Shown in pieces: positions 24,700-49,285 of a stretch of DNA of 64,000 nucleotides (position 1 is the first letter of the stretch; each line of letters begins with the position of its first letter). The position numbers and the translations under genes were made by a program. Source of the stretch: Naegleria gruberi (lineage: Eukaryota). The notes under the pieces are model-generated. The model did no database searches. It was not told the origin of the DNA and worked only from the letters and a program-made list of their open reading frames with translations. The stretch lies in the NCBI GenBank assembly GCA_000004985.1, contig GG738845.1, one strand, 5' to 3'.

Positions 24700-25728
24700 A
24701 TGAGTCACAAATATCAAAAGGATTTCTCTCTGCCCAATAACTTTCAAGAGACTTTACGGGACTTTACTAGAGAGGTTTTAAGATCTCAACCTGGTAACAT
24801 TTATCGATTTGGATATGATTATTTTATGAAGCTGGCTAAGGAAATGGGAGAAAGTACACCTGTGGTTACTGCTGGAAACAATGCCTCCAAAGTTAATGAG
24901 GAGGAACCAGAACAAGAATACAAGGTTGTACATACAAATAATAATGATTTACATACTTTGGATGAATCTCTGAACGCTAGTAGTATTAAACCAAACGAAG
25001 ACGACTACCAAAATATTTCCAGCATTTCCATACAAGATAAACCTGTGAGCATTAAATCTCAAGACAAATTCGAAGACAATGATGTCGAAGAGGAGGGTGT
25101 AGATGAAGATCCAGAAGGTGGTGCAAATTCTGCTTTTGAAGGAGACATGCTCCAAGCTATTGTACAAATTTCAGACCAAGAGCTTTTAAATATTATCTAT
25201 AATCAATTAAGCTCGTTCGGATATGAAAATCTTCCTATGGATGTCATTAAGGATGAAATCAAAAAAGTTTTCAACTATCAACTCCCTGAAGCAATCATGC
25301 TCTTTGTTATGGCAGAATCAGAAATTTCAGAGGATGGTACAATTGAAATTGGTCAATTCTCTCAACAAGTGACAAATGTTTTGAAAACAATTGTGGGAGT
25401 AGAGTCGTTTATGGAAGAAATTAATGTCAATGAGGCCGATGTTGTTCATGGACTCAACAAGATGGAACTGGATGAAGAATTGAAGGCCATTTTCGAAAGA
25501 GCTGACGAAGGCCAAACAGGTGCCATTTCATTCGCCAAGTTCAGAAGAGAATTGTTGGAAGCAGACTTGGACCTTTCTAGAAGAGAGGTGAATATTGTTC
25601 TCTCTGAGGCTGAGTCAGATGAGCATGGTCAAGTTCTGTATGAGAAGAGTATTAATAGTGCTCACAGACTTTTATTCATTGCAAATATGTTTGATGATTT
25701 TTGTAATGAAAATGATTTACATTTCTAA
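24700..25728 (+). CDS. RIIa dimerisation/docking-domain protein with C-terminal EF-hand-like region (radial-spoke RSP7-like architecture), 342 aa
   Basis: The N-terminus LPNNFQETLRDFTREVLRSQPGNIYRFGYDYF matches the RIIa/DPY-30-type docking motif. The C-terminus IFERADEGQTGAISFAKFRREL is a degenerate EF-hand loop. The middle is acidic. Confidence 0.6.
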   Translation: MSHKYQKDFSLPNNFQETLRDFTREVLRSQPGNIYRFGYDYFMKLAKEMGESTPVVTAGNNASKVNEEEPEQEYKVVHTNNNDLHTLDESLNASSIKPNEDDYQNISSISIQDKPVSIKSQDKFEDNDVEEEGVDEDPEGGANSAFEGDMLQAIVQISDQELLNIIYNQLSSFGYENLPMDVIKDEIKKVFNYQLPEAIMLFVMAESEISEDGTIEIGQFSQQVTNVLKTIVGVESFMEEINVNEADVVHGLNKMELDEELKAIFERADEGQTGAISFAKFRRELLEADLDLSRREVNIVLSEAESDEHGQVLYEKSINSAHRLLFIANMFDDFCNENDLHF

Positions 25729-25921
25729 TTGGATCATTTAAAATTATTGTACATTTATAAAACTAATATTAACTAATTGATTTAATCTCAATGTTATTTG
25801 AACGACCATCATGACAAGAAAATGAGGAGATTTTACTTTTTCAAAATTTTAACGTTGACTTCCAATTACTGGCTAATAGAAGATTTCATTTGAATGTAAA
25901 TAAAAATAAATTTTAAAAAAA

Positions 25922-26695
25922 ATGAACTCTGCTGATCCGTTCGACCTGGTGAAAGACAAGGTCAGAGAAAAGCTGGCCTCCATCAAAGTTTTACAGGAGA
26001 TGTATATTGATCCAACAAGTCAAGAACAATGGAGAGGAATAGAAACCGAATTACAAAGTAATATTAAATCGGTTGATTTATTTTTGGGGGATCTGCAATC
26101 AACAATTGATATTGTAGAGAAGAATCCGCAACGTTTTAAAAACATTTCAAAGGAAGAAATCGGAAAACGTAAATTATTTATTTCGACAACATCACAACAA
26201 ATGAGACAAATAGAACAACAAATTAAAACTAGAAAACAAAAACAGCAACAACAGAAAAAAGAAACCTTGCTGACAAACGACGAGGATGAACAACCAATAC
26301 AACCAAAACCAACAGGAAAAGGTTCATCAAAATATTCTAGATTGGAAGAATCATACATTCAAGATAATCAAAAATTTATCGACCAACAATTACAAGTTCA
26401 GGATCAAGTCAAGAAAAATCAAGACCAACAATTGGATAAGATGGCAACTACTGTTCAACGTGTTGGGCAAATCGCTCAAGATATGGGTGATGAACTCGAT
26501 GAACAACACAGAGAGTTGGAGGATATGGAGCAACATGTCGATAAAACAAAAGGATTATTGGAAAGAACGAATAAGAGATTGAGCAACATGTTAAATAATA
26601 CCTCTGATAAGTGGAAAATTATTATCATTGTAACTCTGATTGTTGTGATTTGTATTTTATTTGGCTTGTTATTCATTCCAATTAAATTTAATTAA
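25922..26695 (+). CDS. STX6: Syntaxin-6/Tlg1-like Qc-SNARE, 257 aa
   Basis: Syntaxin-6 N-domain pattern: DPFDLVKDKV...W..ELQSNIKSVDLFLGDLQSTIDIVEKNPQRFKNISKEEIGKRKLF. SNARE heptads: DKMATTVQRVGQIAQDMGDELDEQHRELEDMEQHVDKT. C-terminal TM: WKIIIIVTLIVVICILFGLLFIP. Confidence 0.8.
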   Translation: MNSADPFDLVKDKVREKLASIKVLQEMYIDPTSQEQWRGIETELQSNIKSVDLFLGDLQSTIDIVEKNPQRFKNISKEEIGKRKLFISTTSQQMRQIEQQIKTRKQKQQQQKKETLLTNDEDEQPIQPKPTGKGSSKYSRLEESYIQDNQKFIDQQLQVQDQVKKNQDQQLDKMATTVQRVGQIAQDMGDELDEQHRELEDMEQHVDKTKGLLERTNKRLSNMLNNTSDKWKIIIIVTLIVVICILFGLLFIPIKFN

Positions 26696-26714
26696 ATAAA
26701 TCAATTGTACATTT

Positions 26715-29700
26715 TTAAACAATTTCTGGTTTATCATTGACTGTTCTGTGGTGGGTTAAGGTTTGTCCAATTCCAACTGAGCTAGAGGTACCTGCTGTAA
26801 TCGGTTGACCAATGCTTGTTTGATCCTTTTCATCTGTGAAACTAGTACCCATATTTGTTTGATTTTTAAAGTTTCTGCCACTCTTATTTCCACCCTTTGA
26901 TTTGAACAATTTTCTTACAATTAAACAACAGCAACAAATAAAGCAAATCACACCGACAATAATAGCGTCATAAACATAACGATTATATCGAACATTATTG
27001 TAGTGCTCCATCAATTCATCAATATAGAGGAATGGATTTTCTTCACTGTCTTGTAATTCAAATTGGGATCTATTTGGGAAGTACCAATTGTAAAAGTTGT
27101 GTAACATTTCAACAACCTGTTCATTTGGTTTGGTTTGATTCATATCATCATTCAAACAAATGAATTTAGGTCTGTTTCTTCTCAATTCGTCCAATTGATC
27201 TCCAACTTTATCTTCATCATCTCTAATCATGTGGAATCCTACTTGAGATAAATCTTCCAATGTAAATGGAAAACGTTGTTCGCTCTTGTGTGCCTTTGTT
27301 TTAACAATATCGCTTAGGCCACTATTAACAAAATCTTCAAGAATTGGTTTAGTTCTGAATGCAGAGTCATCCATTGCTTGATATCGTGACAATACAAGCC
27401 TTGTATAATTGAGATGGCCATACAGGATATTTCTTACTGTTTGATGATACTCCTTAAATTCAGAAAAATCTTCAAAATAGGACCAAGATTTCCACTTCTT
27501 GTTACTCTTTGTACTGGCCCAGAAATAGGAACCAAATTCATCATCTTCTGAATTTTTTGTACTGTTTGTTGTTGCAGTTGTGTTAATAGGTGATGTACTA
27601 ATTTCTGGTGTTGGAGTCTTCTTTTTGCCCTTCTTAGTTTTCTTTTTTGGTTTTTCTAATCCTCCTCTTTCCTTTTTCATTTCATCATTAATTGTATTAA
27701 TACTAGATGTAATATTGGTATGTAAATCAGTTAATTTGGAGAGAGGTATCTTGTACTTGTGATACATCAAGTTAGCTAAATTTCTAATTTCATAATTATC
27801 CAAAACATTATCATTGTTTGTATCAACATGTTCCCTCAAAAATCTAGAGACATTATAGTGAATACCTTCATGCATTAAATAGTAGAAATAGGTAAATGTA
27901 TACTGCATATCACTTGAGGATCTAAATCTATTGGATGATGTGACATTGAATTCATATTCCCATTTCTTTTGAAGTTCGAACATAATGTCCCTATCAATCA
28001 TGTGAGGCATGTGAGCTGGTACCTTACGAGAGGCCCTACCATATTCTCTATTCAACAACTTATTCACATGAATTAAACTATCTCCAAACTTATCGAGGAG
28101 TTTTCTACCGATTCTAACAGGTGTGGAGCTTTCTGTGGTGACGCTGTTACTGCTGTCATCATAGTTTTCACTCTTGATTTCTCTTTCAATTCTCTTTTTG
28201 ATATTTTCATATTTTTCTTGATTCTTTTCCTTTTCTGCTAGATTGAAACGGAGGGAATTAACAATTTCTTCAGGATGAGATTGAACAATAGGAATTCTGT
28301 TAGAGTATGATGGTCGAATATTTGATGGAGACGAGATGCCCAATAACTTTCTGTTTTTCTTTTTTAACAACTTTTTCAAATATCTCAATTCATCACTATT
28401 GAGATTATCGATATTATAATTGTCGGCTTCTTGAGTTGGAGACTTTTCTGGTGTTTTAGGAACTTGCTGCTTCTCGGTTGCAATGACTGGATTGGTTTTG
28501 ATAACATTTTCAGAGATGTCATCAATTTCTGTTGCCTTTTCTTTTTGTTTGGTTTCTGTCTTGATATCAACAACTTTTTTAGTCAAATCATCTTCAATCT
28601 TTTTAGTGACAGGTTTGATTTCAGTATCCTTTTTAGCTTGTATAGTGTCGAGTGTACTAGTTGGGGTTTCTTTGGTGACAGTTTCCAAAGTATTCTTCAT
28701 TGGTTCAGTTTTCTTTTCCTCCAATTTAACTTGAGCTTTTTTGGTGTCAATAGATGCAGGACGAACAGCTTGGTTTTCAGTAATGACTGGATTGGTTTTG
28801 ATAACATTTTCAGAAATATCGTCAATTTCTGTTGCCTTGGTTTCTAACTTGGATCCAGATTGTTTCTTGGTATTTGTAACTGACTTGTCATTTTCTTGAG
28901 TATCAGAATTGATATTGTTCCAACTATTAAACCAATCAGTTTCAGGAGTTGTCTTGGTGGCTTTTTCTGCAGGTTTGGTGCTATTGTTCTTTCCAACAAT
29001 AGCATTAAGCTGAGTTTTAGAAAAGTAGGTAGAAACCACCAATGCCTTATTGTAGTTCTTGTCAGCTGCTAACTCTGATTCTTGTGATTCATGAATACCA
29101 AAAATGCTTGTTTCATTTGATAAGTTAAATTTTTTGGCAATGTAATTGAATGTATGATTTGAAACAACCTTTACGATGAAAGATTTTGTAATTGTCAATT
29201 TAGTGCCCAATTGTTCAAAAGTAGTGGAGTGAGTGTTTTGGAATGTATCAGTTTTGGAGGTATCATTAAGAACTCTCTCAGCTTCCAAAGAAACCGGGAC
29301 ATGTTCTTCATAGAAATTGGTATTGTTACTGTACTTGGTAACATTGGACTTGAGAGATTGATAATTAAAAGTGAATATGAGGAGCTTTTCCTTTTGTGAA
29401 ATTGTTGAACTTCTAACTAGCTTTTCATTTTCGTGATTGCCATTAGTAATTTGAGCATCTTTGAATATCTTACTCAAATCCAAGTAAATGGAAGGTTCTA
29501 TATTACGGACATAGATAACTGAAATGCTATTTTCCAATTGTACATGCTCCAATTCTGTCTTTAATTCCTTAAACTCGCAATCTCCAGCATCATAACCACA
29601 TTCTTTAACGTTACATGGTCTATCACAAAAACGATCACCAATCCATGAATCAGAACAAGAGGCTGAGCAATAATTCTTAGTATTAGTGGATGACCAAAAA

Positions 29701-31285
29701 CTATTAGAATTACTACCATAATTATAGTTACCACCATAGTTGCCATAACTTGATGAAGAGCTTGAAGATCCGTAAGAGAATCTCACATTTGGACCAACGC
29801 AATCACCACCATCAAAATCACATTGAGTAACATTGCAAGAAACGTCACAATAACCATCACCTAACCAAGATTCTTGGCATCCTTCATGGCATGGAGGAAC
29901 TTCCCAACTGAGGAATACTTTTTGTCCAGTTGAGTGACTATAAAAATCCTCTGGATACACATCGTTACCAAACATGACATCATCATTCAAGTAAATAAAC
30001 TTTTTAGAAAGGCCAGGAATTCTATGAATTTGAGATTCAATAGAAGGTGAGCTGAAAACTGGTAAATGGATTGGATTTCTGTAAACATCGGCATGTTTAA
30101 CAATTTTAACCTTTGGATTCTTTACGTTTAACCAGCTTGGCACTTGACCACTTGTCACAATATAAACATTTCTGACCCATGGAGCAAATCGTTCCAAACT
30201 ACGTAAACTGTATCTCAACTCATCATTATCTCTAAATCTGTTACTACTATTGGTATCATCAGTTTTGGTAGCATTCTTAGTTGTTGTACCATTGTTGATA
30301 ATTTCTGAGTCATTTTTAACTTTAGGAGTATTTTCCTTCTTTGATTTCTTAGTGGTCTTTTTTGTCAAAGCCTTGTTAGTTTTTGCTTTCTTTCCAGTGG
30401 CACCCTTTTTTTCAACCTTAGTATGTTGTTGTTTGGTAACTGGTGGTTTGGTTGTCTTTTTTGATGAATTGGTTTTCTTTGTAACAGGTGCTTTAGTCTT
30501 TTTGGTTACTTTGGCATTCTTATTGGTTTGAGGAATTGATTTCTTATTAGTTTCTTGTTTCTTCTTGCTTGTGGATTTCACAGAGAGTAATCTTCTTCTC
30601 TTCTTTGTTTTGTTTTCTTGTGTTTTCACATGTGCATTTCCTACTCCTTTCAAATGGTAATTATTGGTTGTTTTCTGATTGGATTTGCTAGAATCAGTAG
30701 TACTAGTAGTAGTAGTATTGGAAGACGTCTTGGTAGCAGCACTTTCAATTGTTTTAGTATTGTCAACATTAGATTTTTCTTCCTTCTCCTTTTCCAAAGC
30801 ATTAAATCGTTTCACTAAATTCTTGTGTATTGGATCGGAACCATTGACCCAAGTATAAACAATATCCATAGGTTCATAACACAATTTAGAAACTGAATTA
30901 ATTTTCATAATATTATCTCTATACATCCTATTACAATAATTTCCCAATTGTGATGCTTCATCATCCTATATTAAATATTTAAATAAATAATTTAAAAATT
31001 GAAATGTTAAAATTATTGAGAATAAATTCATTCGCATTATTATAAACTTACCACAAGGGTAGTCTTATCAGTGATGGAAATATCCAAAATAGATTGTAAC
31101 AAGTGCAATGCCGTATTTAAAGTAATAAATGTAATAATAATCAACAATATAGCACCCCATTTAGATGTTGCAAAGGAATAGAATGAACGTTGAATAGACT
31201 TTGAAAATTGATCATTAAAACAGGAACAACATTTCTTTCCTCTCTTATGATCCAATCCGACATTAGCAGTCGATGAGGGTAACAT
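26715..31285 (-). CDS. GNPTAB: UDP-GlcNAc:lysosomal-enzyme GlcNAc-1-phosphotransferase alpha/beta-like (Stealth family), 2 exons, 1494 aa
   Basis: Exons are 31285..31052 and 30965..26715, with an 86-nt intron (GTAAGT...ATATAG). N-terminal TM: WGAILLIIITFITLNTALHLL. Stealth CR1: DIVYTWVNGSDP. CR2: NRFRDNDELRYSLRSLERFAPWVRNVYIVTSGQVPSWLN...IYLNDDVMFG. CR3: VPAHMPHMIDRDIM...NRFRSSSDMQYTF. Two Notch/LNR-type modules, CQESWLGDGYCDVSCNVTQCDFDGGDC and CSDSWIGDRFCDRPCNVKECGYDAGDC, lie at about 29570-29900. EF-hand-like DTNNDNVLDNYEIRNL. C-terminal TM: AIIVGVICFICCCCLIV. Confidence 0.85.
28482..28838 (-). repeat. Direct duplication of a 57-nt unit (3 mismatches), 300 bp apart, inside the GNPTAB-like spacer region
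   Basis: 28482-28537 versus 28782-28838: AATGACTGGATTGGTTTTGATAACATTTTCAGA(G/A)AT(G/A)TC(A/G)TCAATTTCTGTTGCCTT. It encodes KATEIDDISENVIKTNPVI twice. Confidence 0.85.
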
Positions 31286-31645
31286 ATTTTCCGATTCAAA
31301 AAAAGCAAAATTCTCTCTTTAACAACAACCTTCTTCTCTGTTGTTGTTGTTGTTTTCTTTAAAATAGTGTACGTTTACTCAGAGCAGTGTCTCCTTCGAC
31401 TACTTGGATGACACGTGTATGGTACGCCGTGTGAGTGTGGATTTCTTTTTTTTAATGGAGTTTAAGTGAGTGGATATACAGGAGTTTCAATTTGAAACGG
31501 TGAAGAAATAATGATACAATGATACAATTGAATCTACTTACAAGCTTGTTAACTCTCCTCTAGAAACATTCATACAAACAATTTTATTGCATCAAATAAT
31601 AATACACTGTTCAATAATTATTCAATAAAATCAAAGAAGAAAAAA

Positions 31646-33393: not shown

Positions 33394-33993
33394 CTAGTCA
33401 TCCCACGACGACTGTTGTTTTGGAACATTCTCAAAATCTACTTCCTTATCATACTCATATCCCTCATCACCAGGTCTGATAACGTTGAATTTCTTGTCCA
33501 TCTCTGCCTTTACTCTCCTTAGGGTGACATCATCTAGCTTGTTCAAGTCTTTCTGTTGTGTTTCACTGTCTTCCTCATCCTCGTCAAAGTTATCGTCATC
33601 ACCTTGGTGATGGTACTTAGAGGTTGTATTATTGGTATTTGGGGAAGGTTTACTTTGGTTTTGTATAGATTGAGGCCTATTATCTGGAGGTAAAAATGAT
33701 TTTGTAGTAAAATCGACCAGTTTTCTGATCATTTTTGTAGTTTGATTTTCTGGAATGTGGGAGGCTAAATTCTTATGGTGCTTCATCAGGACATTAGACT
33801 TGATGTGTTCAACCAATTCATCTTCCTCTAATTCCGGATAGTTTTGTACAATGTAGTCTTCCAAGTAAATTTTTCGATGTCTGAGTTCCTTCTTTCCTTT
33901 CTTTGAAATTGTTGTATATTCAATTACGAGAGCACATAATTTCAATCTAATTCCAATTCTTAAAACATTTACATCATCGTTATTTGAGGGCAT
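33394..33993 (-). CDS. CEP19: CEP19-like centrosomal/basal-body protein, 199 aa
   Basis: The C-terminal block DLNKLDDVTLRRVKAEMDKKFNVIRPGDEGYEYDKEVDFENVPKQQSSWDD closely resembles the human CEP19 tail as I recall it ([20 protein letters not shown]...DPNFVYDIEVEF...SCGWD). The ATG is preceded by an A-tract. Confidence 0.6.
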   Translation of the reverse strand: MPSNNDDVNVLRIGIRLKLCALVIEYTTISKKGKKELRHRKIYLEDYIVQNYPELEEDELVEHIKSNVLMKHHKNLASHIPENQTTKMIRKLVDFTTKSFLPPDNRPQSIQNQSKPSPNTNNTTSKYHHQGDDDNFDEDEEDSETQQKDLNKLDDVTLRRVKAEMDKKFNVIRPGDEGYEYDKEVDFENVPKQQSSWDD

Positions 33994-34171: not shown

Positions 34172-34864
34172 TTATTCTCTCTCTGTATTATTCAATATGT
34201 ATTTTAAGGAGAGAGGATAGAAATTCTCAAAGAAATCATATTTTCTATAATCTAGATAATTGTGGGGCCACTTATCAATTCCAATCTTTTCCTTGATCTG
34301 ATAAAATTTTCTTTTAAGAGTTGATAAACTACATCCAAGAACATTGCATGCTTGCTGTTGAGTAAGATGCAAGAGACGTATCATCTCATCATCTGTAATA
34401 CTATCCACACTTCTTTTTCCTCTTTTTCCAATCATGGATGCATCGACTCGAATTATGGAAACATGTTGATCCTTTGAATAATTAAAATATGAATTCTTAT
34501 GAACATCTACTGGGCTTAACATTTGATTTTCCATGAATGTATAAACAACTTGTTCAAAGGGTTTTTCGCTAGTATTCGAACTATTGGAATCTCTATTCTT
34601 CATTTCGTACTTTCTTTTGATTTTTTTAGTTTTTTTCACTCCACCAATCCTGAATTTCGACATGTATTCGAATTGTGAGTTGGATGTTAAGCATGTGTCA
34701 TCAACATCCTCATGCACATGCATGCCATCCGTTGTCACATTAGCAGATGTGTTGTACGCAGATTCTGGTGATGGTAATCTCATACTATTGTTGTGTTGGT
34801 GTTGTTGTTGATTTCCCCTATTAATGTTTAAATAGATGTTATGGTTTGATGTTGTTTGATGCAT
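34172..34864 (-). CDS. RWP-RK domain DNA-binding protein, about 230 aa
   Basis: ITDDEMIRLLHLTQQQACNVLGCSLSTLKRKFYQIKEKIGIDKWPH matches the RWP-RK helix-turn-helix pattern (AA..LG.S.T.LKR.CR..GI.RWP), with KWPH in place of RWPxRK. The track start at 34867 is TTG; the first ATG is at 34864. Confidence 0.65.
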   Translation of the reverse strand: MHQTTSNHNIYLNINRGNQQQHQHNNSMRLPSPESAYNTSANVTTDGMHVHEDVDDTCLTSNSQFEYMSKFRIGGVKKTKKIKRKYEMKNRDSNSSNTSEKPFEQVVYTFMENQMLSPVDVHKNSYFNYSKDQHVSIIRVDASMIGKRGKRSVDSITDDEMIRLLHLTQQQACNVLGCSLSTLKRKFYQIKEKIGIDKWPHNYLDYRKYDFFENFYPLSLKYILNNTERE

Positions 34865-35857
34865 CAAGGCTGCGGAGGAGGATGTTATATTGGCTAGTGT
34901 TGAGATTTGTAGATGGATTCAAAAGCTCTGAGTACTCCATTGATGTGAAGTTGTGTTTTTTGTTGGTTTTTAATGATGGCAATGACTAGAAGAAAGAACA
35001 TAGATGAGCGAGTAAAGCTCGTCAGTGTAGATCGTTCGTTATTGGTTGGGAAGTTTTTTTGTTGTGTGTTGTTGGTGGTTCAAGGGTTGATTTCTTTGGA
35101 AAGAATAGACCTTTACTGGCCCAATTTATTATCGTTGCAACACTGGTTGAAGACAGAGAGTGTCCTTGACAATTCCATCGATTATCTTTTGGGTAATGGT
35201 GTTTTTGTGGTTTGAGATAATTTTGTTTAAGAAACTAACCAATCACATTATTCATTGTAAAATACACAACAAAAATTGAACCCAAATCATGTTTCAGATT
35301 TCTTATTATCAAGCAATGTGATATGACAGAACTATTTATTAATAATTTACATAAAATGTGATTCAAAATTTAAAACTCAAGAAAGATATTCTTCATAGTC
35401 TTCCTTCGAACTGTTAGAGAGGGATTAATTTAGAGTGATGAGGAAAAGCTATAAACGAAATAAACAATCAAGCTAATGATGGAGAGGTAAATAAAATCTA
35501 TTTAACAAGTCCGATTATTAATTATTAAAATATAATTGTTATTAAATTATCAATATCAACAACAACACATACTCATCAAAATAATTTCCCACGGTTCCAA
35601 CATGTAGTTAACACTCATAATTTGATAGTGTTTGAATTTTCTCTGAAGAAAGCCGATCATCTTGTTGCAATTTTTTATTTGATTTTAATGTCCTTGCTGC
35701 GAAAGGCAAACAGAAAAGTTATCGTTGAAAGTAATATCCTCTATCACCCTTCAACTAATTGGATGATAGAATTGTCGGTTCATGTAAGGAACGAGTAATA
35801 AGAAGAGCAAGATATAAGTAATTGGAGGAAACAACATTAAATAGATGATAAATATTT

Positions 35858-35866
35858 CCCGCCAAG
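35858..35866 (+). promoter_or_regulatory. E2F-type element TTTCCCGCCAAG, 37 nt upstream of ATG 35895
   Basis: Read directly: AATATTTCCCGCCAAGTGTT. Confidence 0.5.
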
Positions 35867-35894: not shown

Positions 35895-37295
35895 ATGAGC
35901 TCAAACCGAAGACCCAACAATAATAACACAGCACCTCCCCAACCCACAACAGCCGCTGCTAATCCAGCTGATGCTAAGAATTATGAAGAGTTGAAGGCGG
36001 AATTGGAGGAGACAAAGAGAAATAGAAATTACTACCAATTGGAAAGGGATAGAATAAATTCCTTCTGGGATATTACAAAGAAGGAAGTGGAAAATCTCAA
36101 GGGCGAGGTAAGGAACATGCAGAGGGAGATGGAAGAAAATGAAGAAAGACATCAGGTAGAATTAAAAGTGTACAAACAAAAAGTTAGACATCTTCTCTAT
36201 GAACAAAAGATCACCATTGATAGATTAAAAATTGAAAGTGAGAATGCTTTAAAGATCCAAGCTGATGAATTTAGGCAAAAATTAGCTCAATTGAAATCGG
36301 ATAAGAGAAAATTAAAAAGAGAACTCCACTCTATGGAAATAGCTTACCAAGAAGAAATCAAGGGGCTTAAAACGAATCAAGACAAAAACTTGACAAAACA
36401 AACTGAGACATTTGCAAGAAAACTTAAAGAGACCCAACTGAAATATGAAATGAAAATGAAAAAATTAAGAGAAGATTTAGAATTGAGAGGGAGAAAAGAA
36501 ACTGAAGAAATTGAAGAAAGAAAAAATACTCACATCAAACAATTAATGGAAAAACACAAACTTGCCTTTCAACAAATGAAGGATTACTATATAACTATTA
36601 CTAGAAATAACTTGGAATTAATCAAAACTCTGAAAGATGAAGCTGCACTGATGAAACAGGAAGAAGCAGACAATGAAAAACTCATGTTGGAAATTGCTCA
36701 AGACAATAAGAGATTGAGTGAACCTCTTGTTAAGGCTCTGGCAGAAGTTAAAAAGCTCAGAAATGAATTGGCCAACTACCAAAAGGACAAGCTATCTCTC
36801 AAAAATGCCAAGAGCAGGCTGGTCATGATGGAAGATCAATTGAAGAAATTGAAATGGGAACATGAGATTTTAGAACAAAGCCATAAGCAAGTGCACAGAG
36901 AACGTGACGATCTTTACGATAAGTTTGAAAAAACTATTCATGAAGTTCAACAAAAAACACTGTTCAAGAATCAAGTTCTTGAAACAAAGGTTTATGCACT
37001 TCAAGAAACTTTGGAAAAGAAGGATGCCCAAATTCATGAAATACTCAAAGCTTGTAACATAGATGAACACACAGCCGAAGAAATCTCTGAAGGTCTTGAT
37101 AATGTCATTGAAGAAAAGAACAACACGATACGAGAACTCAAATTTGAAATTGAAAAGATGAAGAAGAGTTATAATGATTTGATACGAGTAATTAATGCCA
37201 AGATGCAACAGTATGGAATTGAGGATGAGTTAGGTATTGAACCAATCGCTAACGTTGTTGATGAAGGTGTCCCAGGTAGAGTATGGGTAAAATAA
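35895..37295 (+). CDS. GAS8: Nexin-dynein regulatory complex subunit 4 (GAS8 / PF2 / trypanin), 466 aa
   Basis: RNYYQLERDRINSFWDITKKEVENLKGEVRNMQREMEENEERHQVELKVYKQKVRHLLYEQ is near-collinear with human GAS8 ([24 protein letters not shown]...[28 protein letters not shown]). It continues through ...NKRLSEPL.. and WEHEILEQ..ERDDLYDKF..IHEVQQKT.FKN. Confidence 0.9.
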   Translation: MSSNRRPNNNNTAPPQPTTAAANPADAKNYEELKAELEETKRNRNYYQLERDRINSFWDITKKEVENLKGEVRNMQREMEENEERHQVELKVYKQKVRHLLYEQKITIDRLKIESENALKIQADEFRQKLAQLKSDKRKLKRELHSMEIAYQEEIKGLKTNQDKNLTKQTETFARKLKETQLKYEMKMKKLREDLELRGRKETEEIEERKNTHIKQLMEKHKLAFQQMKDYYITITRNNLELIKTLKDEAALMKQEEADNEKLMLEIAQDNKRLSEPLVKALAEVKKLRNELANYQKDKLSLKNAKSRLVMMEDQLKKLKWEHEILEQSHKQVHRERDDLYDKFEKTIHEVQQKTLFKNQVLETKVYALQETLEKKDAQIHEILKACNIDEHTAEEISEGLDNVIEEKNNTIRELKFEIEKMKKSYNDLIRVINAKMQQYGIEDELGIEPIANVVDEGVPGRVWVK

Positions 37296-38209: not shown

Positions 38210-38212
38210 TTT

Positions 38213-41452: not shown

Positions 41453-41582
41453 TTTTTTTGATGTGAATATTGACTTGAAGAAATTATTGTAGAAAGTATC
41501 ACTCTAGGCCTTTATTGTCTTTGTCACATCTACTGCAAGGTGGAGCAGCTTGATAAAATACACAACACTGTTAATTTACAAT

Positions 41583-43325
41583 TTAAAGATCTCCATCGTT
41601 TGGATCTTTTTGATTCTTATATTTGTGGAATAATCTCAATGTTTCCAGTGTTCTGGCAAATCTTTCTTTGGGATCTGAAATATGTGGACCATCAGATTCA
41701 TTCTCTCTTTCTGGAGATTTAGATGGTGAAGGTTCAACCTCTTTCTTTGGAGACCAACTCGTGTTTGGAATGTCAGTGTCCAATTCATACTGCTTAATAA
41801 TGGCAAAAATTTGGTCATCTGTCAAACTAAAGTTACTGTCAGAAGTACCTGCACTAATATTGTCATCATCTCCAAAGTAAGAATCATCATCCTTATGGAT
41901 AATACCTTGGCCTCTTTTTTGGTAAAAATTATGAAGGAAAGTTTCTCTGAACTTCTCCTTCTTTTCGAGACCTTCTAGACCTTGCTTATATAGCCTATCA
42001 CCGAAAGGTTCAGATCTTTTCAAGTTGGAAGCCTTACTTGTGATATTAGGGTTGTGTTGGGCTTTCTCTTGCTTGATGTAAGACTCTATATATTTTCGTT
42101 TCTTATGGTTTTTGATGAACTCCCATTCGTAATTCCTCTCAAAAACGTCGTTTGAGGTCTGAAATGTGCTTGGTGTCTTTTTTGTTTGTTCTGCTATCTT
42201 TCTGGATCTACTACTTAAATTTGGTCTGAATGTACATCCATCAACTTCCTTTTGTTTAACTTGATCCTTTAGGCTTTTGAGGCGTTCTTTCTTTTCTTCT
42301 CTCCAATTAAGAAGAACTGTCACATCTCTATTCATCTTTTGAGACTTTTTAGTTATTTCAGGTTTGAATTTTAGCTCATTCTCCTCAATTTTGGAAAATT
42401 CTTGTTTCTTCTTTTCAATATGTTTCATCTTTTCTACTACAAAGGTGGATACTCTGTCGTCAAGTGTACTTCCTGGAGAGATCAATTGTCGTGATCTTTC
42501 ATTGATAACTGGTTGAAATGTATTATTCTTACAATAGTCCTCCTCTCTTTCATTAACAATTTTCTCTATTTTCTTTGCCTTTTTTTCGTATGGTCTATTT
42601 AATCTTTGCGCCAACTCGTCCCACTTTTCTTGACCAACTTCCTTCTTTGGTTTCTCTTCATTGATTTCACTGTTTATCTTATTCAATATGTAAATGGTTT
42701 CGTTTGGATCTTCTGTTTGGTTTAAATGCTCTCTAAAGGCGGATATAGATCTTTGCATTCTTGACTTAATGCTTGGAGCGACTGACTCCCATACGGGGCC
42801 TAACACAGCATCCTTCTTAGGTGAATCTTCCTTGTTTTTAGAATGACTCTCTAGATAACTTTTAAAATCTACAACACTACTGTTCATATTTTGCAATCCT
42901 ATTTTCGATAAATTATGTGAAATTCTAGAGTTACTAATCTCCAATGCCTTGCTATTATTTAAATCTGTATCTCCGAGAAGCTTTACCAATTGATTCACTG
43001 CTAATTCAAATTCATGATCACCAACATCAACTTGATCCGAATTTTCTTCCATTGTTGAAAGTTTCTGAACAAATTCATCATCAGACATGTCTTGGTAAAG
43101 TCCTAGCTGTTGAAATAACCTAGATGTATTCTTAGGGGAGTCTCTTCTCTCTGATAAAGGATTTCCTGGGCTTAATTGTATTGTTAAATTATTCTTATTA
43201 ATAGGAGAGGGTGGGCTTAAGGCCTTATTATTTGTAAGCTCTCCATCAGACTCATAATTCCTAACTTTTGATAAGGCGTTGTTACGAACGCTTAGTTTGA
43301 ACAAATCGGTCTGATTATGACTCAT
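41583..43325 (-). CDS. Hypothetical protein with four F/H-x-P-x-(I/L)-x3-S-x2-(L/M/I) mini-repeats, about 580 aa
   Basis: The track start at 43382 is TTG; the first in-frame ATG is 43325 (MSHNQTD). The repeats are TFQPVINERSRQL, KFKPEITKKSQKM, TFRPNLSSRSRKI and HNPNITSKASNL. I can name no family confidently. Confidence 0.5.
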   Translation of the reverse strand: MSHNQTDLFKLSVRNNALSKVRNYESDGELTNNKALSPPSPINKNNLTIQLSPGNPLSERRDSPKNTSRLFQQLGLYQDMSDDEFVQKLSTMEENSDQVDVGDHEFELAVNQLVKLLGDTDLNNSKALEISNSRISHNLSKIGLQNMNSSVVDFKSYLESHSKNKEDSPKKDAVLGPVWESVAPSIKSRMQRSISAFREHLNQTEDPNETIYILNKINSEINEEKPKKEVGQEKWDELAQRLNRPYEKKAKKIEKIVNEREEDYCKNNTFQPVINERSRQLISPGSTLDDRVSTFVVEKMKHIEKKKQEFSKIEENELKFKPEITKKSQKMNRDVTVLLNWREEKKERLKSLKDQVKQKEVDGCTFRPNLSSRSRKIAEQTKKTPSTFQTSNDVFERNYEWEFIKNHKKRKYIESYIKQEKAQHNPNITSKASNLKRSEPFGDRLYKQGLEGLEKKEKFRETFLHNFYQKRGQGIIHKDDDSYFGDDDNISAGTSDSNFSLTDDQIFAIIKQYELDTDIPNTSWSPKKEVEPSPSKSPERENESDGPHISDPKERFARTLETLRLFHKYKNQKDPNDGDL

Positions 43326-43557
43326 TAGCGTAACGGTATTTTTTTTAAGGTAATACTGTGCAATGTTGTAACTTGGTTGCAAGATTAAATATTTGGGATA
43401 AAATGGTCAAGTCTTCAAATACTCCCCTATGCATCCTTTTGGTGATTTTCAACTTTTTTTGACCAGGTAATGTTCTGTTAACAATAAACATATGATGTTA
43501 TTATGTTTCAAATAATAAATAATATTATCCAATGGAACAAATAACATTAAATAAAAA

Positions 43558-44340: not shown

Positions 44341-44385
44341 GAATTGAATTATTAATTATTTGAAATTTGAATAATACTTTAAAAA

Positions 44386-44868: not shown

Positions 44869-45080
44869 TACAATTTTTCCCCATGGAAAAATAAGAGTTT
44901 TGTCAAATGTTGATTATATGAGATATTTAACAAGGGTATTATTTAAATCTCAAAAGGAAGAGATTGAAATCAATCATATTGTATGGACATTGAGTTTCAA
45001 TAGTAGTTACTGAAGAGTAGAGTACAAGAAAAAACCTCAAACAATCTTGAGAAGAATTATAAATGTAATAATTTTAAAAT

Positions 45081-45090
45081 CCCGCCAAAA
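45081..45090 (+). promoter_or_regulatory. E2F-type element CCCGCCAAAA, 47 nt upstream of ATG 45128
   Basis: Read directly: TTAAAATCCCGCCAAAATTATTAC. Confidence 0.5.
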
Positions 45091-45127
45091 TTATTACATT
45101 TTGCACAAACTTTGACAAAAAAAACAT

Positions 45128-46291
45128 ATGGCCATCGCTACCTCTCCAAAGTCTTCAGTGCTAAAAGCCACAAACACAAGCACGGGAGCAACCTCAACTC
45201 CACCAACATCACATACATCCCCGAAGAGAAATAATAACAACAATAAGGATGGACAACAAGTGTTGAGGAAGATTTATAGGTGCGACTCTGAAATTAAACG
45301 TATGAAGGAACAAGATGAAAAGCAACTACGAATAGAAAGATTAAAACAAGTCAGACAAATGGCTATGGATATTGCAAAAAACAAGACAAAACAATATGCA
45401 CAAGCAAAGGAAAAGGAAAATCAAAGTAATTTGAAGGTAATCAAAAAAGCATGGGAAGAAAGAAAGGAAGAAGAGATTGATCAACTCCAAACAGAGTTGG
45501 ATTATGCTAGAAAAAAAGCTGGTGAAGCCAATAGGAATGCACTCCAATTTAATAAGGAATTCCATCTTCAACAACAGAAGAAACATGAGCAAAATAAGGC
45601 AAACGCTTTAATAGCTCAACAGAGGTTTGATAAATGTGTCAGTATTGTCAAACAAAGACAGGTCGAGAATCAAAAGAAAAAGGATAATCTCTTTGAAAGA
45701 ATTGAAAAATCAAAGAACATGGAATATCCAGAAATTGAGCCTGTCCACAATGGATATGAAAAGTTGTTTGCAGTTCCATCTCGTGACCTGAATGATGTAG
45801 TGGCTGGTTGGAATCCTACCAAAAAGAGAGAAGACCAGGGAATTTACGAGACGACGTTTAATCACCAAATGGTTTTAGAACCAACCTCACCAGAAAAGCA
45901 AACAGCTATTAAAGTTAATCAACATGTGGTCAAACATTTTGATAAACAGGCTGGTGTTGATGTAAATAATGAACAAGCCGAATTGACCTTAGAGGAAAAA
46001 AAGAGGACAGCTTTGCAAAGAGCATTTTCAGAAAAGAGATTTGCAAGAAAAGCCGCAGAAAAGGTGCGAAATGAAAAATTTAATGAGATTATTGTTGAAG
46101 AATTAGAACGAGTATCCAAAATTGATAGACAACTTAAAGTTGAGTCCATACAGAATCCTTCTAGAAATACTCTGGCAGACAATCAATACAAGAAGAAAAA
46201 GCAAATGGAACTGGAAAGAAAATTTGAAGAGCTCTTCAGAAATAGGGTCCATTTTGCAGATAAACCAGAAGAAAAGAGCAGTTACTTTTAA
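45128..46291 (+). CDS. Coiled-coil K/E/Q-rich protein, 387 aa (family not recognised; possibly ciliary or centrosomal)
   Basis: Clean ORF with heptad-like charged sequence throughout. The only hint of a flagellar link is the shared upstream motif. Confidence 0.5.
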   Translation: MAIATSPKSSVLKATNTSTGATSTPPTSHTSPKRNNNNNKDGQQVLRKIYRCDSEIKRMKEQDEKQLRIERLKQVRQMAMDIAKNKTKQYAQAKEKENQSNLKVIKKAWEERKEEEIDQLQTELDYARKKAGEANRNALQFNKEFHLQQQKKHEQNKANALIAQQRFDKCVSIVKQRQVENQKKKDNLFERIEKSKNMEYPEIEPVHNGYEKLFAVPSRDLNDVVAGWNPTKKREDQGIYETTFNHQMVLEPTSPEKQTAIKVNQHVVKHFDKQAGVDVNNEQAELTLEEKKRTALQRAFSEKRFARKAAEKVRNEKFNEIIVEELERVSKIDRQLKVESIQNPSRNTLADNQYKKKKQMELERKFEELFRNRVHFADKPEEKSSYF

Positions 46292-46295
46292 TAAA

Positions 46296-47006
46296 TTATT
46301 GTTTTACAAATTCTCCTGAATCAGTTTGGTCGTAATCTTCATTGAAAGTTGCATTGCCCTTATTGGAAGTAGTTGGTGCAGCTCTCACTTGCTCATTGGT
46401 TTCATAATACTTGACAGCTCTCTTGGAATCAACATAATTGAAAAGTCTTTCCATAATATCAGAATCCCTCCATCGTTCTGGTAATTTTTCTTTCCATTCA
46501 GGATCTTGTCTATCAGTTTCAGTTGCAATAAGCCAATTATACAAGTCACTGTCATGTTCACAGAGTAAATCATAAAATTCCTCAAGATCTGACCATTGAG
46601 TCATCTTTGGAACATTCTCTCTAGCAAAACCACCCAAGAAGAGTTCAGTTTCAACACGACCTCTATTTCTACAATACATGAGGATACGACGTTTTATATT
46701 GTCCATAAAAGCTTGTTCCTCTACTGGTGTCATATCTTTGATTGATTTTCCTTCTGTTACTGCCTTTTCTAAAATTTCATGAAAATATGGTGGACGGAAG
46801 TCTGGAATACTCTTGATAATCTCTTCATCAGTTAAATATTCTTCTTGTTGTTCATTTTCGGAAATGTCTTCTTCCGCATTATTATTTGAAAATTTAATAC
46901 ATTGTGTTGAAAAACGTGCCAATGAGAGATGATTAAAATTCTTGGTGAGAGGTATGTGGTTAAATTTCTTGATTGAGCAAAATTGATACTTGATTAAACG
47001 ATTCAT
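46296..47006 (-). CDS. SDHAF2: Succinate dehydrogenase assembly factor 2 (SDH5/SDHAF2), 236 aa
   Basis: RILMYCRNRGRVETELFLGGFARENVPKMTQWSDLEEFYDLLCEHDSDLYNWL matches the Sdh5 flavinylation-factor core (R-G-x-x-E-x-D-L). The N-terminus looks like a presequence. Confidence 0.8.
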   Translation of the reverse strand: MNRLIKYQFCSIKKFNHIPLTKNFNHLSLARFSTQCIKFSNNNAEEDISENEQQEEYLTDEEIIKSIPDFRPPYFHEILEKAVTEGKSIKDMTPVEEQAFMDNIKRRILMYCRNRGRVETELFLGGFARENVPKMTQWSDLEEFYDLLCEHDSDLYNWLIATETDRQDPEWKEKLPERWRDSDIMERLFNYVDSKRAVKYYETNEQVRAAPTTSNKGNATFNEDYDQTDSGEFVKQ

Positions 47007-47160
47007 TTTTTTTTTAAATTGATAGTAAAATTAATTGAATATTTAATTTTCATTCTCCGAAATTTATTGGGTTAAATACAAAATCAAGAAATTGAAAAGA
47101 ATAATAAAGAGAATGAATTAATAAGGTTGGTGGTTAGTGTTTTATTGGTACAATTTATAT

Positions 47161-47628
47161 TTACTTTTGCATCATCATCTTGACGAATTCAGTATAGTTG
47201 ATTTGGTTATCACCGTCAATATCGGCTTCACGAATCATTTCATCAACTTCTTCGTCTGTGAGTTTTTCACCTAGGTTGCACATAACGTGTCTGAGTTCTT
47301 GAGCAGAAATGAAACCGTTTCCGTCCTTATCGAAAACTTTGAAAGCTTCCTTGATTTCTTCTTCGTTATCAGTATCCTTCATCTTCTTGGCCATCATTGT
47401 CAAAAATTCAGTGAAATCTATTGTTCCATTACCATCAGCATCAACTTCGTTAATCATGTCGTGGAGTTCTGCTTCAGTTGGGTTTTGTCCCAATGATCTC
47501 ATAACAGTTCCCAATTCGCTTGTAGTAATAGTACCATCACCGTCCTTATCGAACAGAGAGAAGGCTTCCTTAAATTCAGCGATTTGTTCTTCAGTTAATT
47601 CGTTATTGCTAATAGCTTCTCTACTCAT
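47161..47628 (-). CDS. CaM-1: Calmodulin with N-terminal extension (flagellar CaM-1 type), 155 aa
   Basis: [55 protein letters not shown]...; four canonical EF-hands. The track ORF extends to a TTG at 47730, but the calmodulin starts at ATG 47628. Confidence 0.95.
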
Positions 47629-47719
47629 TTTGTATACAAGGGTCTTCGTTAGGGATTTTTTTAAGGTTATGTTTTTATTCGGTTGATGTATTGGCCAATT
47701 TATTGTAACTACAGTATTT

Positions 47720-47731
47720 TTTGGCGCCAAA
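47720..47731. promoter_or_regulatory. Perfect 12-nt palindrome TTTGGCGCCAAA (double E2F-type half-sites), 92 nt upstream of the calmodulin ATG
   Basis: Read directly at 47720-47731, in the calmodulin/CDK20 divergent intergenic region. Confidence 0.45.
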
Positions 47732-47843
47732 GATTTACAACGTTGTTTTCGTAGGCGAACTGGTTAGAAAGCGCGTCTTCTAGATTAATTGGCCTTTCAT
47801 CGCTAATCACACTCACTACAAAATTCAGAACCACAAGAGATGA

Positions 47844-47851
47844 GCGCCAAA
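47844..47851 (+). promoter_or_regulatory. E2F-type half-site GCGCCAAA in the calmodulin/CDK20 intergenic region
   Basis: Read directly: GATGAGCGCCAAACAAG. It lies about 400 nt upstream of the CDK20 ATG. Confidence 0.3.
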
Positions 47852-48257
47852 CAAGTGCTATCAGTGCGACAATTAGGAAAATAGCGAACCCTTAATGAAT
47901 GGAAGGTTATTATCTTCTCATAAACAATGATCACTTTATAAACCAATACTTTTTCTCATCAGCATATATGGTTTTAACATTGTTTTTTTTGAAATATGTC
48001 GTAATGGGTTATGGTTGAATACAGGTCCTACTACTAGTTCCTTATTGGATGTTTCCCTCATGTGGAAGTTGTGCCCCATGAGTTGAACTTTGTTAAGGTA
48101 CTTTGTCATCCCTATATTCACAACTTTTGAAGAGTGACCAATTGTTATCTTTGAGTATTGGTGGGTTTAAAAGGATGATTTTTGTTCGAACACGCTCATA
48201 CAATGGTTTCATACAAATGAATCAAAGAAGTTGGTTTTGTATGCAACAAAGTAAAAA

Positions 48258-49285
48258 ATGGCCACAAACTACTTGATGGAAAATTATACAATTATTGAGA
48301 AGATTGGTGAGGGAACATTCGGACAAGTATTAAAAGCAAAAAGGTAAGTAGTAAAAGGAAGATAATGATCTTTAATATAATTTAGGAAGGCTGATGGACG
48401 AGTTGTGGCCTTAAAGAAAATTAGAATTAGGAAACAAGAATTTGAAGACTTTCCGAAAAATGTAATTAGAGAAGCAAAAAGTCTTCAACATGTGTGCCAC
48501 AATAATGTCATCAAGTTGTATGATGTCTTTGTGAATGGATCATCTCTTGTTCTCTCATTAGAATTTATGAAAACAGATTTGGCAAGAATTATTAAAGCCC
48601 AAAGGACACCCTTCCTTGAGTCTCATATCAAATGTATAATGCTAATGATGTTAAAGGGTCTCCACAATTGTCACACCAATAGTATCATGCACAGAGTATG
48701 TAGGAAAGTGTAATTATTTAGAAATTAATTATGTGGAATTATTAGGACATCAAACCTGCCAACTTACTTTTCAATCACAACGGAGAGTTAAAACTGGGAG
48801 ATTTTGGATTGGCTACGTTGTATCTTGGAAAGAATGAATCTTACTCACATCAAGTTGCAACAAGATGGTACAGAGCTCCAGAACTTTTGTATGGAAGTAG
48901 ATCTTATGATTGTAAAGTAGATATTTGGGCAGCTGGTTGTGTCATGGCAGAATTGTACAATCTTTGTCCCTTATTCACTGGTGAAAATGATATTGATCAA
49001 TTATATAAGGTACTTTCACTTTTGGGAATTCCTTCAGAAAATAATTGGCCAGGAGTTTCCAAGTTGCCAGATTTTGGCAAGATAACCTTCTCGAAAATTA
49101 AAGTGAGAACGATCAGTGAACTAGTTCCAGGAGCTCCTGATTTGGCTCTTGATCTTATGTCACATCTATTAAGATTTGACAATGATGAAAGATATAGTGC
49201 TGAGGAGGCCTTAAGACATCCATACTTTTTTAGTGAACCTTTGCCTTGTGATTTTTCAGAGCTTAAATTGCCAAACAAGATGTAG
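48258..49285 (+). CDS. CDK20: Cyclin-dependent kinase 20 (CCRK / LF2-type), 3 exons, 311 aa
   Basis: Exons are 48258..48343, 48386..48695 and 48746..49285. Introns are 42 and 50 nt (GTAAGT..TTTAG; GTATGT..ATTAG). Splicing restores GEGTFGQVLKAK|RKADGRVVALKKI and IMHR|DIKPANLL. SHQVATRWYRAPELLYG and HPYFFSEPLPCDFSELKLP parallel human CDK20. Confidence 0.85.

Follow-up and report, generated by a model that had tools for sequence, protein, structure and literature searches.

The 24.6-kb interval 24700-49285 of the window (the whole stretch of Naegleria gruberi NEG-M DNA that was analysed, 64,000 nucleotides) contains five genuine cilium/basal-body genes among 16, with a sixth possible. Very probably this is an ordinary compact stretch of chromosome, in which rearrangement and chance have grouped the five ciliary genes with no mechanism acting at the level of a cluster, and in which regulation proceeds gene by gene. 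We also put forward, tentatively and at somewhat less than an even chance, that this accidental grouping exposes a cis-element of the Naegleria flagellar regulon, consisting of a proximal E2F-type site (TTTGGCGGGAA or TTGGCGCC) and a TTTACA-like element. The five genes are as follows.

24700-25728, + strand: RSP7-like radial-spoke protein (NAEGRDRAFT_61455), with N-terminal RIIa and C-terminal EF-hand pair
33394-33993, - strand: CEP19 (NAEGRDRAFT_56519), PF14933 E 1.2e-42
35895-37295, + strand: DRC4/GAS8, nexin-dynein regulatory complex subunit 4 (NAEGRDRAFT_88226), with GAS domain
47161-47628, - strand: flagellar calmodulin CaM-1, 155 aa, identical to UniProt P53440 'Calmodulin, flagellar'
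48258-49285, + strand: CDK20/CCRK/LF2-type kinase, 311 aa, exons 48258-48343, 48386-48695 and 48746-49285

The original prediction had named these same genes, and all five assignments, including those of CEP19 and RIIa/RSP7, pass profile tests, with the coordinates confirmed; the interval had been thought to hold about 25 genes, and the actual count is 16. The product of the gene at 24700 has a RIIa domain (PF02197, E 9.6e-10 with Pfam profiles) and a weak EF-hand pair (EF-hand_7 at 20.3 bits, under its Pfam cut-off). Its top PDB match is Chlamydomonas RSP7 (7jtk_M, E 3.5e-26; the runner-up stands at 1e-4), in an alignment that spans the N-terminus and the EF-hand region, with 342 aa in the Naegleria protein vs 500 aa in Chlamydomonas. 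The RIIa plus EF-hand-like layout, with RSP7 as the nearest characterised relative, points to an RSP7-like protein. The predicted protein at 33394 matches the CEP19 family profile above its curated cut-off (146.3 bits vs 27; profile positions 2-151 of 151 aligned), and UniRef lists the gene as 'Centrosomal protein of 19 kDa', which identifies it as CEP19. For the gene at 35895, the GAS domain (PF13851, E 4e-72 in Pfam) and a full-length match to the DRC4 of the Chlamydomonas axoneme structure (7ju4, E 3e-128) argue for DRC4/GAS8, the E-values against Chlamydomonas, human and bovine DRC4 ranging from 3e-128 to 1e-102. The calmodulin at 47161 has four EF-hands (Pfam), and its exact match to P53440, N-terminal extension included, assigns it to the flagellar isoform CaM-1 of N. 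gruberi. Finally, among the top 120 matches of the kinase at 48258, the named ones from outside the Heterolobosea are nearly all CDK20 or CDK20-like (49-55% identity, 315-360 bits), two names in the same list being of CDK2 type; against CDK2, CDK3 and CDK7 the scores are about 250-258 bits, and the gene appears closer to CDK20 than to other CDK subfamilies.

The cilium genes of the interval are interspersed with ten others that are unrelated and occupy both strands; these encode syntaxin-6, a GlcNAc-1-phosphotransferase-like Stealth protein, an XRN-like protein, an RWP-RK protein, a PGS1-like protein, Rsm22, MED6, Sdh5 and two proteins without an assigned function. Domain searches found no recognisable ciliary domain in the ~27 remaining genes of the window, so that the limits of the interval are in effect drawn post hoc around the ciliary genes. 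For six proteins in or near the interval (599, 160, 370, 526, 387 and 317 aa), Pfam and the sequences of solved structures gave nothing usable, and none of these can therefore join or leave the ciliary set. Tandem duplication as the origin of the grouping is ruled out because the gene families are unrelated, and an assembly artefact because the order GAS8 - RWP-RK - CEP19 - XRN is also present on an independent metagenome contig.

One of the six, a coiled-coil protein, had been suggested to belong to the same set.

45128-46291, + strand: coiled-coil protein, 387 aa (NAEGRDRAFT_61464), Heterolobosea-restricted

The suggestion holds insofar as the gene carries the promoter motif described below, but nothing in the sequence of the protein itself identifies it as ciliary. 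It has no match in Pfam or PDB; phmmer, run in full against 1.8 billion representatives, returned just two homologues, from N. lovaniensis and Willaertia, and neither a word-indexed search nor a profile search with the three-sequence alignment recovered further relatives. The Willaertia homologue (35% identical) has a precomputed match, as a candidate only, to PF28375 CEP295NL; with a Pfam set that does not include this model, none of the three proteins gave a match. By way of this match, its sole link to the centriole, the 387-aa protein may be CEP295NL-like, and it may be a sixth member of the cilium/basal-body set.

An important question is whether five ciliary genes among 16 are more than chance would place together. 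We simulated random placement in a genome of 15,727 genes and recorded the frequency with which some run of 16 genes includes five or more ciliary ones. The genome-wide P is 0.005, 0.04, 0.35 and 0.86 for 200, 300, 500 and 700 ciliary genes, respectively. The enrichment is nominally strong and hinges on the breadth of the definition of 'ciliary': a strict ciliome of ~200 genes would speak against chance, making the 5-in-16 run significant genome-wide (P ~0.005), while at realistic ciliome sizes the probability is unremarkable. The expectation of an excess is thus borne out as a nominal enrichment, but not as one clearly beyond chance across the genome. According to the main text of the RNA-seq time course, 6,389 genes shift >2-fold during differentiation, so that co-induction alone would discriminate poorly.

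Gene order in related species gives no sign of a functional cluster. In N. fowleri/N. lovaniensis, GAS8, calmodulin, CDK20 and the coiled coil have their orthologues on four separate contigs, among unrelated neighbours. The 10 kb on either side of GAS8 in N. fowleri and N. lovaniensis have a wholly different gene content, as have the neighbourhoods of calmodulin, of the coiled coil and, PROPPIN aside, of CDK20, and Willaertia agrees on the absence of linkage for CDK20 and the coiled coil. When 42 window proteins were compared with these loci by tblastn, the query genes themselves and PROPPIN were found and nothing else, CDK20-PROPPIN being the sole adjacency kept in the loci examined. Among ~45 distinct neighbours of the four orthologues, just the dynein light chain LC8 is evidently cilium-related, which at ~2% equals background. 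The linkage is not conserved in relatives, and the genes of the interval are not contiguous, co-oriented or served by shared regulatory DNA. Since genes have been reshuffled in general between N. gruberi and N. fowleri, the lost linkage is weak evidence against mild or recent selection. The caution of the original prediction, which spoke of a modest excess that might be due to chance and of gene order as a poor guide to function, agrees well with the absent linkage in N. fowleri, N. lovaniensis and Willaertia and with the unremarkable simulated P; any reading of the grouping itself as functional is unsupported.

Several of these genes do have one thing in common: RSP7, GAS8, calmodulin and the coiled coil, together with a gene for a 317-aa protein outside the interval, each have an E2F-like box, TTTGGCGGGAA or TTGGCGCC, at a distance of 32-95 bp upstream.

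24660-24668, + strand: E2F-like box TCCCGCCAA, with TTGGCGGGA as its reverse complement, 39 bp upstream of the ATG of the RSP7-like gene
35857-35865, + strand: E2F-like box TTTCCCGCCAA, 37 bp upstream of the ATG of GAS8
45080-45088, + strand: E2F-like box TCCCGCCAA, 47 bp upstream of the ATG of the coiled-coil gene
47721-47730, no strand: palindromic E2F-like box TTGGCGCCAA, upstream of the ATGs of both calmodulin (94 bp) and CDK20 (535 bp)
6655-6663: E2F-like box ACCCGCCAA, 32 bp upstream of the ATG of the 317-aa gene (- strand)
5578-6624, - strand: spliced gene, 317 aa, outside the interval, exons 6624-6321, 6273-5849 and 5802-5578

The motif SSCGCCA occurs at six places in the window (8 strand matches, vs 1.2 matches expected), and five of the six lie 32-95 bp upstream of an ATG. 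Each box sits in the private proximal promoter of its own gene, and four of the genes concerned have an established or suspected role in cilia, the fifth being the 317-aa gene. The product of the latter has no Pfam or PDB match, and the structure model of its exon 2 (mean pLDDT 47) is too poor for a fold search. The shared upstream element on which the original prediction laid weight is therefore present at RSP7, GAS8, the coiled coil and calmodulin, but not throughout the set: the region upstream of CEP19 has no E2F-like box, merely a degenerate GCCTCCAAAAATCTACA, and the CDK20 of N. gruberi is without a proximal one. The ten intervening genes of the interval have no box either. A general core-promoter role is ruled out, as genes for ribosomal proteins and translation factors do not carry it, either in the window or at the other loci.

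The E2F/DP site consensus is TTTSSCGC, and the predicted sites match it, as TTTGGCGGGAA at RSP7 (reverse complement), TTGGCGGGAAA at GAS8, TTTGGCGGGA at the coiled coil and TTTGGCGCCAAA at calmodulin. E2F-family proteins are reported from Excavata generally (PMC4862756), and an E2F/DP factor would be the candidate to bind the box. In other Naegleria species it is the gene, and not its surroundings, that the box accompanies. The GAS8 orthologues of N. fowleri and N. lovaniensis have TTTGGCGCCA at -44, the calmodulin orthologues have TTGGCGCCA at -116 and -130, and the N. lovaniensis coiled-coil orthologue has TTTGGCGCC at -55, the sole match in its 21-kb locus. LC8 of N. fowleri is also preceded by a box, against a background of about 2% across the loci of N. 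fowleri and N. lovaniensis.

On the reading that we prefer, rearrangement and chance would have brought five members of a large cilium/basal-body set among 16 genes, every gene would be transcribed independently from a short promoter that it does not share, and co-regulation in the transition from amoeba to flagellate, where present, would act singly on each gene through its proximal box. The predicted layout is the box, 6-12 nt further on a TTTACA-like element, and then an A-rich leader. On this reading the motif would confer induction during differentiation, such that RSP7, GAS8, the coiled coil and calmodulin would be box-controlled and CEP19 and CDK20 would not.

Could part of the interval be a functional unit all the same? 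The head-to-head pair of calmodulin and CDK20 might be one by itself, sharing a bidirectional promoter whose palindromic site drives both genes. Transcription does diverge from a 629-bp common region that holds TTGGCGCCAA, and a one-mismatch AGCGCCAAA in this region faces CDK20. However, the palindrome is more than five times further from the CDK20 ATG than from that of calmodulin, whereas all other instances lie 32-130 bp from theirs. In addition, the CDK20 genes of N. fowleri and Willaertia have no box inside 400 bp upstream and are preceded by TFIIA-gamma, not calmodulin. As TFIIA-gamma occupies this position in both N. fowleri and the outgroup Willaertia, the head-to-head arrangement is derived in N. 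gruberi and its box-less counterparts mark it as a rearrangement junction. We regard a shared promoter as unlikely.

A little less likely still is a recently assembled, N. gruberi-specific neighbourhood in which shared chromatin would aid the rapid mass induction of box-bearing flagellar genes. Four box-bearing genes do lie inside 23 kb, with a fifth at 6.6 kb of the window, and five among ~43 window genes exceed the ~2% background seen at the loci of N. fowleri and N. lovaniensis. In the simulation the nominal probability at window level is low, and a Poisson estimate for the box-bearing genes, ~0.003 for one window, also speaks against chance. This estimate nonetheless means that about one or two such windows are expected per genome by chance. 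Moreover, the box-bearing genes are separated by ten unrelated box-less genes on both strands, the boxes are all in private proximal promoters, and orthologues have the same box in quite different surroundings that show no ciliary excess.

That the interval is left over from a larger, ancestral cluster of ciliary genes, broken up in the N. fowleri/N. lovaniensis lineage, is highly improbable: the GAS8 - RWP-RK - CEP19 - XRN order on the metagenome contig carries little weight in its favour because of the near identity between this contig and N. gruberi, whereas the outgroup Willaertia shares the CDK20 upstream neighbour with N. fowleri and has its coiled-coil homologue without ciliary neighbours from this set, tblastn finding no window genes there.

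The Chlamydomonas 'uni' linkage group (XIX) is reported as a region that drew notice for its many genes affecting the basal body and flagellar apparatus (PMC2120091), and a special status for it as a basal-body chromosome has been argued against (PMC2288942). The Naegleria interval resembles it in that unrelated gene families are grouped by function, not by duplication, but 'uni' is a whole genetically defined linkage group, whereas here we have a 25-kb stretch with five genes, unconserved in sister species and with a chance-compatible probability. As in eukaryotic co-expressed clusters, operons and bidirectional pairs, related functions lie close together, with calmodulin and CDK20 head to head; unlike in those, the genes are neither contiguous nor co-oriented, have no common regulatory region and ten genes between them, and the pair is lineage-specific.

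A parallel for the box is the E2F4/5-DP1-Multicilin programme of animal multiciliated cells, since the proximal promoters of Naegleria flagellar genes have textbook E2F-type sites (TTTGGCGGGAA, TTTGGCGCCAAA); Naegleria, for its part, builds basal bodies and flagella de novo. Unlike in the animal programme, the Naegleria sites are predicted from sequence and lie on axonemal genes (RSP7, DRC4, calmodulin, LC8), two basal-body/regulatory genes, CEP19 and CDK20, being without the motif. Multicilin and GEMC1 are not known outside animals. The arrangement also resembles the animal X-box/RFX and FOXJ1 regulons, where dispersed ciliary genes each have a short proximal motif and clustering is needless, although the Naegleria motif is of E2F type and not an X-box. 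Naegleria is without RFX, FOXJ1 and XAP5, and its cilia-gene transcription factors are unidentified according to a 2025 review (PMC12183034).

With gene-by-gene control as the preferred reading, the clustering amounts to an accident, local to one part of an already published genome, in the order of its genes; it is of little importance in itself and not usable to infer function for neighbouring genes of unknown function. Its value is that several flagellar genes in one window make their common E2F-like box easy to spot, which provides a direct handle on the question of the Naegleria cilia-gene transcription factors. If E2F/DP reads the site, this would explain how cilia genes are driven in an organism without RFX, FOXJ1 and XAP5, and E2F-type mass induction of basal bodies and flagella would be no invention of animal multiciliated cells, being either ancient or convergent. 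The box could also predict new flagellar genes, for example the 387-aa coiled coil (45128) and the 317-aa gene (5578-6624).

The window, assigned by exact sequence matches to a 1.56-Mb contig of Naegleria gruberi NEG-M, is gene-dense (33% G+C, with few and very short introns), and the original prediction saw in it a grouping of cilium and basal-body genes between an RSP7-like gene and CDK20. The five named assignments all hold in profile or similarity searches, including those of CEP19 and of the RIIa domain; a sixth gene had been proposed more cautiously:

24700-25728 (+), RSP7-like, NAEGRDRAFT_61455; RIIa (E 9.6e-10) and a weak EF-hand pair by profile search
33394-33993 (-), CEP19, NAEGRDRAFT_56519; CEP19 profile matched end to end (E 1.2e-42)
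35895-37295 (+), DRC4/GAS8, NAEGRDRAFT_88226; GAS domain (E 4e-72)
45128 (+), 387-aa coiled coil, NAEGRDRAFT_61464
47161-47628 (-), flagellar calmodulin, P53440; identical in sequence to the characterised flagellar calmodulin
48258-49285 (+), CDK20; 311-aa kinase after splicing, two introns of 42 and 50 nt

The closest solved-structure relative of the RSP7-like protein is Chlamydomonas radial spoke protein 7 (E 3.5e-26; runner-up 1e-4), with strong N-terminal similarity, and DRC4/GAS8 matches Chlamydomonas DRC4 over its full length (E 3e-128). Named relatives of CDK20 outside Heterolobosea are nearly all CDK20 (315-360 bits, 49-55% identity), versus only ~250 bits for CDK2 and CDK7. Our three-exon CDK20 model shares 85% identity with its N. 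fowleri counterpart; the exact sequence of the model is absent from the protein collection, so a public N. gruberi model is probably either lacking or different. The suggestion that the 387-aa coiled coil belongs to the same set is favoured by a box at its promoter (see below), but Pfam and PDB searches returned no match. Its only two homologues among 1.8 billion representatives are from N. lovaniensis (50% identity) and Willaertia (35%), and since the CEP295NL match of the latter comes from precomputed annotation only and was not reproduced, it is no more than a hint of a ciliary or centriolar identity.

From RSP7 to CDK20 we count 16 genes, not the approximately 25 first estimated. The other ten, on both strands, encode syntaxin-6, a Stealth/GlcNAc-1-phosphotransferase-like protein, XRN-like, RWP-RK, PGS1-like, Rsm22, MED6 and Sdh5 proteins, and proteins of 599 and 160 aa with no assigned function. 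A domain search of the ~27 genes elsewhere in the window found none with a recognisable ciliary domain, which indicates that the interval limits were set around the matches themselves. The Stealth-family protein (26715-30947(-), 1,410 aa) has the CR1-CR4 and two Notch LNR repeats of the GNPTAB architecture, together with long low-complexity inserts. The mid-interval 599-aa protein (41583-43382(-); 580 aa counted from the first ATG, 501 aa in the public model) carries repeated F-x-P-x-I/L-x(3)-S-x-K/R motifs, e.g. TFQPVINERSRQL, KFKPEITKKSQKM and TFRPNLSSRSRKI, and had no match in Pfam, PDB or precomputed domains. An RWP-RK transcription-factor gene (34172-34867(-)) lies between CEP19 and GAS8, and Willaertia has another 7 kb downstream of CDK20 (L009:18390-18971); the two show no similarity by tblastn at E < 1e-6, and their occurrence near these genes is probably coincidental, the family being an expanded one. 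Contigs of environmental metagenome ERR1078381 encode proteins ~100% identical to the N. gruberi XRN-like, RWP-RK, GAS8, MED6, 599-aa and 160-aa proteins, and a CEP19 of 208 aa (199 aa in N. gruberi; 94.7% identity); the sample contains a near-identical N. gruberi strain.

How unusual is such a grouping? We placed K ciliary genes at random among the 15,727 genes of N. gruberi and scored whether any run of 16 genes in a row contained at least five ciliary ones. The genome-wide probability was 0.005 for K = 200, 0.04 for K = 300, 0.14 for K = 400, 0.35 for K = 500 and 0.86 for K = 700. In one fixed window of 43 genes, the probability of five or more ciliary genes is 0.001-0.04; the 41-Mb genome holds ~640 windows of this size, so several comparable ones are expected. 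A review gives the gene number as 'about 16,000', and the human gold-standard ciliary list is put at 688 genes. Given that list and the breadth of the "ciliary" category used, which takes in a calmodulin isoform, a CDK and a centrosomal adaptor, values of K between 300 and 700 are realistic and the grouping would be unremarkable genome-wide (P 0.04-0.86), bearing out the initial caution that the excess could be chance.

Gene order in relatives points the same way. The orthologues of GAS8, calmodulin, CDK20 and the coiled coil lie on four separate contigs. GAS8 in N. fowleri and N. lovaniensis is surrounded by genes for an amino-acid transporter, COBRA1, DHHC, L51/S25, an RRM protein, RpS8, a v-SNARE, an ARM protein and RpL34e; calmodulin by an ABC transporter, a COMM-domain gene and guanylate cyclase; the coiled-coil orthologue by F-box, RWD, Zn-cluster and RGS genes; and N. 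fowleri CDK20 by TFIIA-gamma on one side and PROPPIN on the other. A tblastn search of 42 window proteins against all comparison loci recovered only the sought genes plus the PROPPIN adjoining CDK20, an adjacency common to N. gruberi and N. fowleri (window 48258-50457; L008:10001-13004; cf. L009:8203-11142 in Willaertia). [quoted passage not shown] We consider it probable, with good confidence, that the grouping arose by chance in the course of the heavy rearrangement that sets N. gruberi apart from its relatives.

Among the alternatives, all of which we rank below chance, a functional bidirectional promoter for the head-to-head calmodulin-CDK20 pair is unlikely. CDK20 has TFIIA-gamma upstream of it in N. 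fowleri and in the outgroup Willaertia but not in N. gruberi, which makes the pair a derived rearrangement junction and places the breakpoint in the 629-bp spacer; no box is present upstream of CDK20 in N. gruberi, N. fowleri or Willaertia. A recently selected, co-regulated neighbourhood is a little less probable again: with N. gruberi gene order broadly scrambled, lost linkage is compatible with weak or recent selection, but of ~45 distinct genes neighbouring the four orthologues just one is evidently cilium-related (dynein light chain LC8; ~2%), which is the background rate, so ciliary genes have no general tendency to cluster in Naegleria. A relic of an ancestral cluster, with the orthologues now dispersed, is very improbable. 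What stands of the original prediction is the existence and naming of the genes; the grouping is probably not functional, its linkage being unconserved and its members non-contiguous, so that both conservation and contiguity, as expected of a 'functional gene cluster', are lacking; the simulated enrichment, with P running from 0.005 to 0.86 according to K, speaks neither for nor against that class. The nearest earlier example of flagellar genes grouped together is the Chlamydomonas uni linkage group, where many genes affect basal body and flagella (PMC2120091), and whose proposed special status is disputed (PMC2288942).

The part worth pursuing is a promoter box displayed by accident of the grouping. 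Exact TCCCGCCAA occurs three times in 64 kb (~0.1 expected from base composition): RSP7, GAS8 and the coiled coil each have one copy, on the + strand and 37-47 bp upstream of the ATG. The pattern SSCGCCA/TGGCGSS is found at six places (8 strand matches versus 1.2 expected; no shuffle reached 8), five of them intergenic and 32-95 bp upstream of an ATG, belonging to these three genes, flagellar calmodulin (palindromic TTGGCGCCAA) and a 317-aa gene. Box forms are TTTGGCGGGAA or TTGGCGCC:

6655-6663 (-), 317-aa gene
24660-24668 (+), RSP7-like
35857-35865 (+), DRC4/GAS8
45080-45088 (+), coiled coil
47721-47730, flagellar calmodulin

TTTACA, TTGTAG or ATTAC follows 6-12 nt on, and then an A-rich leader. 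Upstream of CEP19 there is no full box, just degenerate GCCTCCAAAAATCTACA, and ribosomal-protein and translation-factor genes have none. Judged by sequence, the box fits the E2F consensus, TTTSSCGC.

N. fowleri and N. lovaniensis keep the box at their orthologues despite unrelated surroundings, 32-130 bp from ATGs overall: TTTGGCGCCA at -44 for GAS8 in both species, TTGGCGCCA at -116 and -130 for calmodulin, and TTTGGCGCC at -55 for the N. lovaniensis coiled coil; Willaertia has TTCCCGC at -37. Positions in the comparison loci are L001:9959, L003:9959, L004:9886, L005:9872, L012:9946 and L008:1460. In the surroundings of these genes in N. fowleri and N. lovaniensis, ~85 kb from four distinct loci of which two were sampled in both species, just one further promoter-proximal match turned up, 115 bp upstream of N. 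fowleri LC8; at the N. fowleri GAS8 locus, a gene of no known function has a looser variant, TGGCGCG, 232 bp upstream.

We infer that each interval gene would work independently from a short promoter of its own. A private E2F-like box would serve to induce the axonemal genes (RSP7, DRC4, calmodulin, probably also the coiled coil), and CEP19 and CDK20 would be under different control. Proximity would then contribute nothing beyond the per-gene element, and dispersed orthologues would function alike. This regulatory logic is similar to that of dispersed X-box/RFX-type ciliary regulons, and by sequence the box resembles sites of the E2F4/5-DP1-Multicilin programme of animal multiciliated cells (PMC5839779). 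According to a 2025 review, Naegleria lacks RFX, FOXJ1 and XAP5, and the factors driving its cilia genes are not known (PMC12183034); E2F-family proteins are present in Excavata (PMC4862756), and our literature search found no paper tying E2F to Naegleria flagellar or cilia genes. From the box, participation of an E2F/DP-type factor in Naegleria flagellar gene induction is predicted, as is a flagellar role for the 387-aa coiled coil and for the 317-aa gene.

The 317-aa gene lies outside the interval at 5578-6624(-), with exons 6624-6321, 6273-5849 and 5802-5578 and the box 32 bp upstream of its start codon. Its promoter alone makes it a candidate for a new flagellar gene; Pfam and PDB searches gave no match, and a structure model of exon 2 (pLDDT 47) was too poor for use. 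The public model here, NAEGRDRAFT_61447 (2,425 aa, ~5800-12111(-)), shares one 90%-identity cluster with separate ORFs of 115, 141, 193 and 729 aa from this stretch and therefore looks like a chimeric annotation: several genes have apparently been fused, among them an ankyrin-repeat gene and the 193-aa ORF, along with both exons of the 317-aa gene.
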